A stretch of DNA of 64,000 nt, from NCBI GenBank assembly GCA_000004695.1, contig CM000151.3, forward strand, positions 6,016,001-6,080,000, written 5' to 3'. Position numbers and translations under genes: made by a program. The notes beneath the pieces are model-generated. The model did not search any database and was not told where the DNA came from. It was given only the letters and a program-made list of their open reading frames with translations. The stretch comes from Dictyostelium discoideum. Taxonomy: Eukaryota. Below are positions 13,488-17,382 of this stretch, piece by piece (positions within the stretch are counted from its first letter, which is position 1; the number at the start of each line of letters is the position of its first letter).

Positions 13488-13660
13488 TTATTCGGATTTA
13501 ACAGGTATTTCTTTAATAACTTTGGCTGGATTTCCAGCAATAACAACATTACTTCCAAATGATCTAGTTACTACAGCTCCAGAACCAACAACAACATTAT
13601 CACCTAATGTGACACCAGGTAAAATTATTGCTCCACCACTTTTATATATATTTATTTATT

Positions 13661-13720
<60 letters not shown>

Positions 13721-14238
13721 ATAAAATAATTAATAATTAATAAATAAAAATTAACAAATATTAAAGAAGGAGAAAAAAAAAAAAAAAAAAAATGAAGAAA
13801 AAAAAGGAGAACCTACCCAATCCAAGCATTATCTCCAATTGTAATAGGCTTACCAAATTCTAAACCAGAGTTACGTTCAGTTGGATCAATTGGGTGAGTT
13901 GCAGAATATAATTGAACATTTGGAGCTAACATTGCATTCTTTCCAATTGTAATTGGGCAAATATCTAAAAATATGGCACCAAAATTTGCATAGAAATTCT
14001 CACCAACGTGAATATTGTAGCCATAATCCACTCTTAATGTTGGTTCAAGATAAATCTTTTCGCCAGTTGATCCAAATAATTGTTTGGTGATATCTTTTCT
14101 TTCCAACTTATCCATGCTATTATTAAATCTATGAATAAGTTGTCTGGCTTCGGTTCTACCTTTACATAATTCTTCATCACCTGGGTCATACATTAATCCT
14201 TTGGTCATTTTTTCTCTTTCTGTCATTTTGGTATCCAT
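13488..14238 (-). CDS. Maltose O-acetyltransferase paralog 2 (Maa family), 2 exons
   Basis: Exon 1 is 14238-13817 (ends ...ITIGDNAWIG, donor gtaggt). Intron 13816-13639 is mostly poly(A)/poly(T). Exon 2 is 13638-13488 and encodes [49 protein letters not shown]. The joined protein is colinear with E. coli Maa. The + strand ORF 13522-13740 is an antisense shadow of exon 2. Confidence 0.8.
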
Positions 14239-15032
14239 TTTGTAATTATTAATAAAATTAACTAATACTTTTTATTGGTTGTTGTTGTGTTGTTTTAGTT
14301 TGTCGCTTAAACTAAAAAAAAAAAAAATAAAAGCCCTAAATAAAAAATAAAAAATAAAAAAAACAAAAAATTACAAGATGCGTCACCAAACTTGACAGCG
14401 TTACAATCTTAATTAAATTTATTTTTTATTTTTTTTATTTTTTTTTATTTTTTTTTTTTATTTTTTTTAATTTTTTTTTTTTTATTTTTATTTTTATTTT
14501 TTTTTTTTTTTCTTTTCCCTGTTTTTTTTTATTTTTATTTAATGCATATCTACTGCATACACGAAAAATTTTGCCCAATATATTTTTAAAGCATAGATTA
14601 GATATTTACTTTTTTTTGTCAAAACATACACATTGCTTTTTTCAATATTGAAAAAAAAAAAAAAAAAAAATTAACGGGGCGACAAAAAAAGGTTAAAATT
14701 GTTTGAAATAACAATAAAAAAAAAATTTAATGTGGGAGGATACAACATTTCTTTGGTAATTTTTTATTAATTTTAACTTGATTTTTTATTAAATTTTCTA
14801 ATAATAGTTTAACTTTTAAAAGGTTTCATAACAAAATTTGGGAAAATGTTACCTTTTCCATTGCCTGGGGGAAAGGGATTGTAGGGTGGTGCTTTTCTAT
14901 TTCCCCCTGATTGCTAATTTAAAGTTGATGTTAATAAATAATTTTTTTTTATTTTTATTTTTATTTTTTTTTTAAAAAAAAATTTCTATCATTATTTACC
15001 GTTGGATATCCATTCATTGTTGGTTTTGGTGA

Positions 15033-15067
<35 letters not shown>

Positions 15068-15416
15068 AAAAAATAAGAAGCTTTTGGGAAATTTTAAACA
15101 AAAAAAAAAAAACAAAAAAATAAAAAAATAAAATAAAATTTTAACCTGATATTTTTAAATAAAAAAAAAACAGATATTTTAAATAAAAATAAAAAAAGAT
15201 TTTTTTAAAATAAAAAAAAAACAAATTTTTTAAAATAAAAAAAAAGACCCGAAGTGGCATTTTTATTTTTTTTTATTTTTATTTTTTTTTATTTTAGTAT
15301 CCTCCATCAATTTTATAAATGTTATCATTCTATCCTAAAAATGTTGTATGTGTAATTTTTTTTTTTTTTTTTTTTTTTTTGAAAATAAATTTATTTTAAC
15401 CTTTTGTGTTTAGATT

Positions 15417-15500
15417 ACCGGCTCTTTAATTAGGCCAGGACCTACAATATTTCCAGCAGGTTCGAACTCTGGTGGTAAACCAACTCCAGCAATATCAATT
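15417..15500 (-). other. Orphan GC-richer exon-like island: acceptor-like tttatttag followed by an ORF (ILNVCLIDIAGVGLPPEFEPAGNIVGPGLIKEPVI*) with no identifiable upstream exons
   Basis: Local G+C far above flank. Host-preferred codons on the minus strand (ttc, ggt, cca, gaa). Bounded by poly-T/AG on one side and a stop on the other. Could be a terminal exon, gene fragment or decayed element. Confidence 0.25.
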
Positions 15501-15664
15501 AAACAAACATTTAAAATCTAAATAAATTAAAAAGAAGAAAATAATTCTTTAATTTCAATTTCAATTTTTTTTTTTTTTTTTTTTTCAATTATGTAATTCT
15601 TTTTTTTAAAACAATTTTTAATAGAGTCATGTAGAATGATAAAGATGAAAAAACTATTTACAAT

Positions 15665-15696
<32 letters not shown>

Positions 15697-15762
15697 TTTA
15701 ATTGAGGCAAGATTTTCAAAATTTAAAATATATAATTTTTTATTTTTTATTTTTTTATTTAT

Positions 15763-16185
15763 TTATTTTTTATTTTTTTCAAAATTATCTCTTGTTAAAA
15801 TATTAAAAGAGATTGGAGTAAAAGGCTTCTCACATTTACCACACCACCATCGTTTTTTGTCATGTCTGAAAGATGGGGGACAATTACATTTTTTACATTT
15901 GATATCAATTTTCAATTGGTCATTTATTATTTTTTTTTGTGATTTTTCTTTTTTTAAACTAATTTTTTTTTGTTTAAATTTTGTAATTTTTGGACTTTTT
16001 GGGATAATTGATTTTATATTTGTATTAATATTATTATTATTATTATTACTATTATTTTTATTATTATTTGGAATAAAATTAGTTATTGTTGAATAATTAT
16101 CATAACTTTCTGGAAAACCCAAAGGATTTAATAAAAAATTAATCTTTAATTTTTCATTTATTTTATTAAATTGGAAGCTATCCAT
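15763..16185 (-). CDS. Small C4 zinc-ribbon protein, paralog of 10463-10864
   Basis: 140-aa ORF with the same C-terminal C-x2-C-x14-C-x2-C...EKPFTPISF module. It sits in the same position relative to a Maa paralog as the first copy. Confidence 0.55.
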   Translation of the reverse strand: MDSFQFNKINEKLKINFLLNPLGFPESYDNYSTITNFIPNNNKNNSNNNNNNINTNIKSIIPKSPKITKFKQKKISLKKEKSQKKIINDQLKIDIKCKKCNCPPSFRHDKKRWWCGKCEKPFTPISFNILTRDNFEKNKK

Positions 16186-17382
16186 TTTATTGATTTATTT
16201 TTTATTACAATATTTATTATTTGTTTAATTTTTTATTTTTTTTATTTTTTTTTTTTTTTTTTCAAAAAATTATAAAAACAATTTTTTTATTTTGCGATTA
16301 TGGTAATTTTTTATAGTTTATAAGACAAATATAATTGAAAAAAAAGTAATCAACCTTGTCCAATTATTTTCAATTTAAGCAAAAAATAAAAAAATAAAAA
16401 AAATTAAAAAATAAAAATAAAAAAAAAAATTAATAAATTAATAAATAAATGATTATTTTTTTCATTAAAATTATTTAAATAATGTTGCAAGGTATTTAGA
16501 ATTTTTTTGTTAAAAAAAACAAAACCAATTTGGAAAAAAAGGGAATCTTAATGGTAGTGTTTATTTGAGTGTGAAATGTGTTTGGTAGTTATTTTTTTTT
16601 TTTTTTTTTTTTTAATTTTTTTTTTTTTTACATATAATTGATGCACTAAAAAACCCCCTTTGAGTGTGATTGTTTAAAAAAAAAATAAAAAAAATTTATA
16701 AAAAAATAAATTAGTTTTTACTTTTGTTAATCTTTAACAACAAGATATTATCTTTAATAATATTATTTTGACTTACTTAATATCACCACACCAATAAATA
16801 AAAAAGGAAATTAAATTGAAAAAAAATTGATATTTTAAAATTATTGGAATATGTGTTTTTTGGATTATTTGTGTGGTTAAAAAGGGGGGAGAGGGGGTAG
16901 AAATTTAACACATGGCTCACGTGCTCAATCTGGACAGTATAATTATTTTATTAAATACAATGAACACACAAATATAATGGCAAGAAGTGATGTGGATTGT
17001 CAGTTAACATTTTTTATTTTTAAATTTTTTTTTTAATATTGTTAATTATTTTGATTTGTATTTTTTTTTTACTTTTTAAACAATTTTATGTTATCCTTCT
17101 TGTTTTATTCTTTATTATTATTATTTTTTTTTTTTTTTAAGTTTGATTAAAATGATGATAAATACACTGATTTACTCATAAAGGGTTAAAATTAATTGAA
17201 AGTGTTTGTTATAAAATATAAAAAAAAAATATTAAAAAAAAAATTAAAATAAAAAAAAAGAAATCAAAAATAAAAAAAGATAAATAAATAAAAAAAATTT
17301 ATATTGCATATTTAAATTTATTGTTTTATTTTTAATTTTGTTATTTTTTATTTATATAATTTATTTTTTTCAATAAACTATT

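Follow-up and report, generated by a model that had tools for sequence, protein, structure and literature searches.

The hssA/2C/7E-type families of Dictyostelium are made up of small genes with short, low-complexity Gly/Ser-rich products, and small open reading frame (ORF) genes for 'microproteins' that annotation has missed are a further system with which the elements described here can be compared. These elements are GC-richer islands in a 64,000-nt stretch of Dictyostelium discoideum chromosome 2 (assembly GCA_000004695.1, contig CM000151.3, positions 6,016,001 to 6,080,000; the whole stretch is hereafter called the window). They lie between DDB_G0275913, encoding the acetyltransferase Maa2, and DDB_G0275715 (ZnF2), and are likely to be the exons of two divergent, paralogous two-exon mini genes, termed gene S (40 codons) and gene G (44 codons). 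Like missed small-ORF genes, the predicted mini genes have 40-45 codons, are uncalled in several assemblies, are confined to a narrow clade, evolve rapidly and were detected by genome comparison alone. They differ in being spliced and in being arranged as an inverted pair whose members would share their upstream region. The resemblance to the hssA/2C/7E-type families is one of general description, and no such protein was retrieved by a word search with gene S or by HMMER with the antisense peptide of gene G. In AT-rich dictyostelid intergenic DNA, small GC-richer and usually unannotated islands are also formed by Class I non-coding RNA genes, in which the DUSE motif ([AT]CCCA[CT]AA) lies about 60 nt upstream or else precedes a TGTG box (Kjellin et al., 2021, PMC7919456). 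The mini-gene region shares this setting but lacks a DUSE, an Rfam match and a structural signal, while showing conserved ATG, splice sites and reading frame.

The locus was compared with its counterparts in a near-identical strain (L001), a divergent D. discoideum (L002), D. discoideum ACTFIR (L013), the D. cf. discoideum strains ACTFIY (L003) and ACTFIZ (L012), D. dimigraforme (L010), D. citrinum (L011) and D. firmibasis (L004), with loci L010 to L013 being reached through members of the 90% cluster of the neighboring Kelch protein. The close lineages differ overall by only 2-14%. A first-pass annotation of the window had pointed out GC-richer patches in this interval, and these are real, as GC contents of 39% (14812-14913), 38% (15413-15517) and 38% (15000-15036) stand against a mean of 14% and a 95th percentile of 30% in 60-nt windows outside long open frames. 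Thirteen orphan islands with at least 33% GC outside open frames of at least 90 aa occur in the 64 kb, two of them being those annotated earlier, with GC contents typical of exons, and among the others at least one corresponds to Maa2 exon 2, a short exon of an already known gene. The start codons of gene S and gene G are 302 bp apart, the genes facing away from each other, with the following features.

15018-15036, minus strand: gene S leader, short A/C-rich aaagtcaccaaaaccaaca, directly downstream of a T-run
15000-15017, minus strand: gene S exon 1, ATG AAT GGA TAT CCA ACG (MNGYPT), ATG at 15017
14914-14999, minus strand: gene S intron, 86 nt, GTAAAT...AAATTAG, 8% GC
14809-14913, minus strand: gene S exon 2, CAA TCA GGG ... 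AAA AGT TAA, encoding QSGGNRKAPPYNPFPPGNGKGNIFPNFVMKPFKS and ending with TAA at 14811-14809
14785-14790, minus strand: AATAAA, 19 nt past the gene S stop, second copy at 14768-14763; putative poly(A) signal
14540-14765, minus strand: islands A and B, downstream of gene S, containing cctCCCACATTAAA and, after it, a T-run
15037-15295: region between the two starts, with an oligo(dT) run beside each leader and a small conserved block at 15240-15262
15296-15318, plus strand: gene G leader, agtatcctccatcaattttataa
15319-15345, plus strand: gene G exon 1, ATG TTA TCA TTC TAT CCT AAA AAT GTT (MLSFYPKNV)
15346-15413, plus strand: gene G intron, 68 nt, GTATGT...GTGTTTAG, 13% GC, with a T-run inside
15414-15521, plus strand: gene G exon 2, ATT ACC GGC ... 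AAA ATC TAA, encoding ITGSLIRPGPTIFPAGSNSGGKPTPAISIKQTFKI and ending with TAA at 15519-15521
15521-15526, plus strand: AATAAA, abutting the gene G stop, kept in four of four lineages; putative poly(A) signal

Both genes would follow the layout usual in Dictyostelium, in which an oligo(dT) run precedes a short A-rich leader and a first exon of 6-9 codons, followed by a single AT-rich intron of about 70-86 nt with boundaries GTA.GT/GTAAAT and TAG and then by exon 2 (34-35 codons), the stop and AATAAA. The full gene S product, as obtained by model enumeration, is MNGYPT joined to QSGGNRKAPPYNPFPPGNGKGNIFPNFVMKPFKS (40 aa), and that of gene G is MLSFYPKNV joined to ITGSLIRPGPTIFPAGSNSGGKPTPAISIKQTFKI (44 aa). 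The predicted peptides are small, rich in Gly, Ser, Asn and Pro, devoid of a long hydrophobic stretch and probably disordered, and have the motif G-x-G-S/G-(N) ... P-x-x-x-P-x-G-S/G-N ... G ... P ... I/V/M-K-(P)-F-x-S/I in common. The gene S leader, 84-89% identical in L002, ACTFIY and ACTFIZ, would by usual Dictyostelium gene anatomy represent a 5' untranslated region (UTR). In the gene G leader, TCCATCAAttt.TAA is kept in L002 and ACTFIY, with ATCATCAATTCTATAA in ACTFIZ. The region between the two starts is presumed to act as a bidirectional promoter. Downstream of gene S, block 14752-14811 is 87-90% identical in L002 and ACTFIY. Islands A and B show patchy conservation with indels that are not multiples of three and about 67% identity to ACTFIZ. 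A conserved coding model was not found for islands A and B, the plus-strand ATG model being destroyed in L002 and ACTFIY, and they may possibly be part of a 3' UTR or a terminator. As a separate observation, a recurrent string downstream of gene S, CC(C)ACATTAA with a T-run after it, is seen at 14737-14721 of the window, twice at about L012:4689-4760 and also in L002 and ACTFIY; it is not an exact DUSE.

The sequence anatomy, the conserved gene structure and the family relationship are directly visible in the genomes compared. The same two-exon structure of gene S is present in L002/ACTFIR, ACTFIY, ACTFIZ, D. dimigraforme and D. citrinum, with the ATG retained in all lineages, the intron GT and AG in six of six, and ATG, GT..AG intron and in-frame stop all found at homologous positions (6/6). 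Its exon 2, with orthologues in L002, ACTFIY, ACTFIZ, D. dimigraforme and D. citrinum, has a sole frame open across all six lineages, which is also the best of the six frames by codon log-odds. Considering both genes, stops are absent from the proposed sense frame in each of the 10 exon-2 copies, which holds for no other frame; the chance of an open frame after base shuffling is about 0.1 per copy. Exon-2 lengths of 102, 102, 102, 93, 96 and 102 nt and of 105, 105, 105 and 108 nt differ exclusively by multiples of three, while introns vary freely (gene S: 86, 80/75, 69, 75, 64 and 69 nt; gene G: 68, 73/74, - and 74 nt). Gene G structure is found in the window and L001, in L002/ACTFIR and in ACTFIZ. 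Its first exon reads MLTFHPKNV in L002/ACTFIR and MFQVVATNP, likewise of nine codons, in ACTFIZ, both with the donor GTAAGT. The 3' boundary of the intron is gtgtttag in the window and the equivalent intron of ACTFIZ has 74 nt; exon 2 of the latter strain carries an in-frame 6-nt insertion and an identical ..FKI end before the stop.

In ACTFIZ, both genes are arranged head to head as in the window, with canonical GTAAGT donors and introns of 74-75 nt. In D. dimigraforme and D. citrinum, by comparison, Maa2 is not present between ZnF2 and the Kelch gene, and one mini gene each is found in the orientation of ZnF2. The following structures were deduced (exon 1, intron ends where given, exon 2 up to the stop codon).

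D. dimigraforme (L010) mini gene: MMRNQISV, gtaaat..tgtag, GAGSNRFPITSPVGSNNGKGNSCPTPFKPFNM
D. citrinum (L011) mini gene: MNIRNVSVISM, gtaaac..cacag, GAGSNKNKPTIFPSGSNTANGCNGPKITIKPFTS
ACTFIZ (L012) gene S: MNRNIPT, GSGANIKQPFNPAFISTKGGPNFNKKPFSLY
ACTFIZ (L012) gene G: MFQVVATNP, GVGSIKQGPVSCPLGSNQLIGGKPTPKLPVKLSFKI

Exon 2 of D. citrinum matches the plus strand of the third island of the window by tblastn (PTIFPSGSNTANGCNGPKITIK against PTIFPAGSNSGGKPTPAISIK, E 6.5e-4). Moreover, a family hidden Markov model (HMM) built solely from the D. dimigraforme and D. citrinum exon-2 peptides, hence independent of the window, was run on 7854 six-frame open segments from the window and loci L001-L011. 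Its best non-self matches are the plus frame 15414-15518 (E 8e-4) and its orthologues (E 8e-4 to 2e-3), followed by the gene S frames of L002 (E 0.06) and ACTFIY (E 0.6). With the full-family HMM, made from seven exon-2 peptides, no further copy was found in the loci searched, nor does the rest of the window contain another copy of the islands. Transcription, splicing and translation of the mini genes, promoter sharing and any function they may have are inferred. If real, they would represent a microprotein family restricted to this clade and new to the gene set of D. discoideum, a finding that changes nothing fundamental; judged from the comparisons, this family is fast-evolving and has no known relatives.

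Earlier, exons of a single fast-evolving small gene had been considered, among other possibilities, for the three patches, which could not be assembled since their order and orientation conflicted. The idea of a fast-evolving small gene is supported, with the corrections that there are two such genes rather than one and that 15414-15521 is coding on the plus strand. This explains the conflict, as assembly into one gene failed because the islands are, in the model proposed here, exons of two genes on opposite strands. The second patch, placed at 14965-14997, was off by about 35 nt and fell into AT-rich intron, the poly-T..aaag / g/gtaaat block actually being 15000-15036. In the first patch, the quoted ATG GAA AAG/gtaac donor is not part of a frame conserved across genomes, and AAAAG/gtaac is read through in the gene S model; past it, the base composition remains that of an exon, and L002 and ACTFIY retain the TAA at 14811-14809. 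A second gene S intron after AAAAG/gtaac was accordingly tried and discarded, its downstream 'exon' having frameshifting indels and the read-through stop being kept in L002 and ACTFIY. Further gene models were rejected as well, namely a plus-strand two-exon ORF via the first island (MWEDTTFL/C..SISP), whose ATG is followed by a stop in L002 and ACTFIY; an N-terminal extension of Maa2 by the gene S exons, for which L002 has lost both the acceptor and the frame by deletion; and splicing of ZnF2 to the 15414-15521 island, as no donor yields an open phase.

Regarding existing annotations, NCBI calls zero genes between ZnF2 and Maa2 in L001, L002 and ACTFIY, in agreement with the statement that the interval has no gene model. 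For the reference strain AX4, an accession gap hints at one. RefSeq and UniProt numbers run consecutively over Maa1, (helicase), ZnF1, Kelch and Maa2 (XP_643604, Q552S7), and XP_643605 / Q552S6 is skipped before ZnF2 (XP_643606, Q552S5), so an AX4 gene model may exist, or may once have existed, for the interval studied. Exact-sequence look-up of ten guessed AX4 gene models gave none in the protein collection, and a literature search on gene identifiers and Dictyostelium microproteins found nothing. The mini genes are not called as such in the NCBI strain and species annotations examined, though the start of an ACTFIZ gene model coincides exactly with the gene S ATG. This model (L012:4414-6113, 241 aa) runs from there into Maa2-like DNA, has no acetyltransferase Pfam match and is probably a chimeric mis-prediction.

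Between the window and ACTFIZ, gene S is 93% identical in the 3' half of the intron, 84% in the leader and 78% in exon 1, while exon 2 reaches only 61% with a 12-nt in-frame gap. Nonsynonymous divergence (dN) is about 0.43-0.46 gene-wide for both genes, compared with 0.037 for the neighboring Kelch gene in the same species pair, where synonymous divergence (dS) amounts to 0.15; on these figures the predicted mini genes evolve fast. Because the coding exons outpace their intron and flanks in divergence, the pattern points to either very weak constraint on most residues or diversifying selection. A speculative and rather unlikely proposition is that diversifying selection acts on the peptides of the mini genes, which in a social amoeba might be, for example, secreted factors or factors of cell-cell interaction. 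Here the coding exon would diverge several times faster than the intron beside it and also faster than synonymous sites in neighboring genes, as drawn from the contrast of exon 2 (61%) with the intron 3' half (93%) and of gene dN with Kelch dS. Such an exon evolving faster than its intron makes the pair an inexpensive test candidate for adaptive peptide evolution among wild Dictyostelium isolates.

Several observations weigh against functional mini genes. Substitutions among the close lineages are statistically indistinguishable from neutral, with 5 of 20 changes in gene S exon 2 being synonymous (permutation P = 0.48) and 4 of 8 in the gene G island when scored in the minus frame of the 35-aa peptide (P = 0.12), and pairwise dN/dS values, based on very few sites, spread from 0.2 to 1.3. 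Gene S exon 2 is conserved no better than its own intron, and in ACTFIY the ATG and the donor of gene G are lost, which shows that at least one lineage can dispense with the family. The window gene S frame scores E 3.6 with the D. dimigraforme/D. citrinum HMM, below two unrelated segments, and the E-values that this HMM gives for gene S are marginal. In D. firmibasis, no mini-gene copy was found within 6 kb of its ZnF orthologue. Database searches were equally silent, as no word-sharing protein for the 40-aa gene S peptide exists among 5.8 billion, an exact-sequence look-up of three gene G variants in the protein collection was negative, and Pfam, NCBIfam and PDB gave no match to the peptides at E≤10. 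The HMMER search against 1.84 billion proteins was run with the antisense peptide of gene G; the gene G sense peptide was not homology-searched in large collections.

Most of these points are what one would expect if the islands were non-functional young or decaying ORFs, or pervasively transcribed noise, whose shared structure reflects common descent only and whose frames AT-biased mutation has yet to erode. The near-neutral substitutions, with dN/dS of 1.0-1.3 in some pairs, the exon being conserved no better than the intron, the loss of gene G exon 1 in ACTFIY and the lack of annotated homologues would all fit. On the other hand, ATG, GT, AG, stop and open frame are kept though exon 2 is only 55-61% identical in DNA, exon-length changes are all in frame, and the chance of remaining open under neutrality is about 0.1 per diverged copy. 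We regard this explanation as improbable.

The 35-aa peptide featured in the first-pass annotation translates as written from 15517-15413 on the minus strand, the quoted strings being present in the sequence, but on the gene model proposed here it is the antisense frame of gene G exon 2. This frame looked coding because its third codon positions coincide with those of the sense frame and it stays open in all four gene G copies; over both genes, it is open in 7 of 10 copies. The host-preferred codons noted for it are only part of its usage, as rare ccg, ggc, gag and cta are found too, and the codon log-odds of the island are nearly equal for both strands (minus 14.7, plus 12.4). The 'acceptor-like tttatttag' in front of it is simply the reverse complement of the gene G stop codon plus AATAAA. 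In extremely AT-rich genomes, this is a trap, since the two strands of a short exon can appear equally coding. The corresponding alternative, 15413-15517 being a minus-strand terminal coding exon (ILNVCL...KEPVI) of a gene with unrecognised upstream exons or of one destroyed by rearrangement, could draw on openness in four of four lineages, which also counts against the plus-strand assignment, as well as on the log-odds of 14.7, a GC content by codon position of 0.60/0.37/0.17 and the four synonymous changes out of eight. Given the coinciding third positions, however, a coding look is expected as a by-product. Moreover, an in-frame start and a conserved upstream exon in the 245 nt before ZnF2 are lacking, ZnF2 offers no donor in the right phase, the acceptor AG is AA in L002/ACTFIR by a change that is synonymous for the last codon of gene G in L002 (ATC>ATT), and the stop is not kept in ACTFIZ. 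The only HMMER match is spurious and repeat-inflated, with PDB and Pfam empty. A minus-strand exon thus appears very unlikely.

The match just mentioned had suggested a CAP/SCP (PR-1) C-terminus, as the minus-frame EFEPAGNIVGPGLIKEPVI resembles ..YRPAGNITNPGYYERNVL of P0125. Such a CAP-domain relic was rejected, for this sole match, to a protein with six CAP domains, comprises 8 of 19 residues and has an E-value exaggerated by five repeats, neither Pfam nor PDB gives a match at E≤10, and the strand is probably non-coding. Bacterial origin of the 15414-15521 island was also dismissed, plasmid blastn giving AT-rich noise only.

Non-coding function of the islands, either as G/C-box regulatory modules for Maa2 or ZnF2 or as a small structured RNA, has comparably little probability. 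Dictyostelium regulatory elements often are G/C-rich boxes within AT-rich spacers, and one G-rich run, GGGTGGTGG (plus strand, about 14882-14890), shows conservation, but conservation of frame and splice sites would not be expected of regulatory boxes. The non-coding RNA proposed earlier as one option gained no support either. Rfam (gathering and E-value modes, E≤10) and ARAGORN were empty, with no tRNA gene in the region, and both single-sequence and alignment folding gave nothing, z-scores ranging unremarkably from -2.0 to +0.9 and compensatory pairs being absent from the alignment. The DUSE in the form WCCCAYAA has four matches in the window, none within 14246-15762, and the near-DUSE TCCCACAT at 14737-14730 is not conserved. 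For the terminal stem, the 11-nt motif as well as the structure of Class I RNAs, Rfam at E≤10, folding and covariation provided no support; a dedicated Class I covariance model was not used. A conserved B-box (GGTTCGAANCC) was not found either, the B-box-like TTCGAA core being mutated to TTTGAA in L002 and ACTFIY.

Least probable of all is an origin of the islands as debris of neighborhood duplications (helicase, Maa or a second locus, Sybindin-Maa-RPS6), akin to the decayed gene copy suggested before, since for all the rearrangement around them (ZnF1 and ZnF2 48% identical, Maa2 plus about 270 nt upstream common to the other locus, an inverted Maa fragment beside gene G in ACTFIY) the islands show no similarity to helicase, Maa1/Maa2, the paralogous Maa locus or the rest of the window, with helicase tblastn empty, Maa Smith-Waterman scores no better than those of shuffles, paralogous homology stopping at about 14510-14526, and tblastx and blastn-short of the islands against everything else empty. 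Among specific candidates of this kind, a helicase pseudogene between Maa2 and ZnF2, suggested by D. firmibasis synteny, yielded tblastn noise only. Reading the third island as a decayed Maa C-terminal exon relied on superficial resemblance that was no better than shuffles in Smith-Waterman alignment, and homology to the Sybindin-Maa-RPS6 locus covers only 14315-14510, the upstream block of Maa2 itself, ending at about 14510-14526 and short of the islands.

Returning to the two mini genes, their arrangement suggests how the pair may have been formed. One copy is found in D. citrinum and D. dimigraforme, and an inverted pair together with Maa2-like DNA in the D. discoideum complex (window/L001, L002/ACTFIR, ACTFIY and ACTFIZ). 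The pair appears to have arisen by inverted duplication of one mini gene that is still single-copy in the former two species. In ACTFIY, an inverted 5' fragment of Maa is followed by gene G, also inverted, then by gene S and Maa2, i.e., a palindromic layout of Maa fragment and gene G pointing to one side and gene S and Maa2 to the other, which is the mirror image expected from inverted duplication of a [mini gene - Maa2] unit. In the left flank of the window (15526-15762), a left-arm Maa remnant was not detectable, Smith-Waterman scores being no better than those of shuffles. The fragment in ACTFIY (L003:6553-6813), located between ZnF2 and gene G, repeats Maa2 exon 1 in inverted orientation over 260 nt with about 90% identity. 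Divergence of this neighborhood from ACTFIZ is uneven, with dS of 0.15 for Kelch and 0.11 for ZnF2, 81% identity in Maa2-like DNA and about 61% in mini-gene exons, and the ZnF2-Maa2 interval may carry an old haplotype or evolve unusually fast.

The neighboring genes and shared flanks are as follows.

15763-16185, minus strand: ORF of ZnF2 (DDB_G0275715)
13491-14238: Maa2 acetyltransferase (DDB_G0275913), two exons, left of ZnF2
DDB_G0275911: Kelch gene
DDB_G0275511: ZnF1
Window 14315-14526, L005:4756-4945 and L012:5040-6365: upstream region of Maa2 common to the second Maa locus

Maa2 is 63-70% identical to sugar O-acetyltransferases of Firmicutes (Carnobacterium, Streptococcus suis, Listeria), 69% to its closest D. 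purpureum homologue and 53% to the window paralogue Maa1. As the identity to Firmicutes equals or exceeds that to D. purpureum and is far above that to Maa1, Maa2 looks like an old bacterial acquisition. Its nearest relatives are found at the Sybindin-Maa-RPS6 locus in D. citrinum, in further strains of the discoideum group and in D. purpureum; this locus shares, in D. citrinum and others, Maa2 plus about 270 nt upstream, the protein there being 96% identical. Since D. citrinum and D. dimigraforme, in addition, have no Maa between ZnF2 and Kelch, the comparisons indicate that Maa2 was copied into its present locus and is no product of a local segmental duplication of Maa1. A 70-nt block (14360-14429), which precedes the Maa2 ATG by about 130-190 nt, is the best conserved non-coding stretch here, with one difference in L002 and three in ACTFIY. 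It carries the imperfect inverted repeat AAGATTGTAACGCTGTCAAGTTTGGTGACGCATCTT, lies inside the stretch common to the paralogous Maa locus and is probably a Maa promoter element.

In D. firmibasis, a single ZnF is located beside the helicase in the order Mpo1-ZnF-helicase, and Kelch, Maa and mini gene were not found within 6 kb of this orthologue, from which the whole ZnF2-to-ZnF1 block appears to be absent or to reside elsewhere in that genome. Finally, the interval from ZnF2 to the Mpo1-like gene contains a further orphan GC-richer island (16836-16970), which is outside long ORFs and carries the G-run aaaaggggggagagggggtag.

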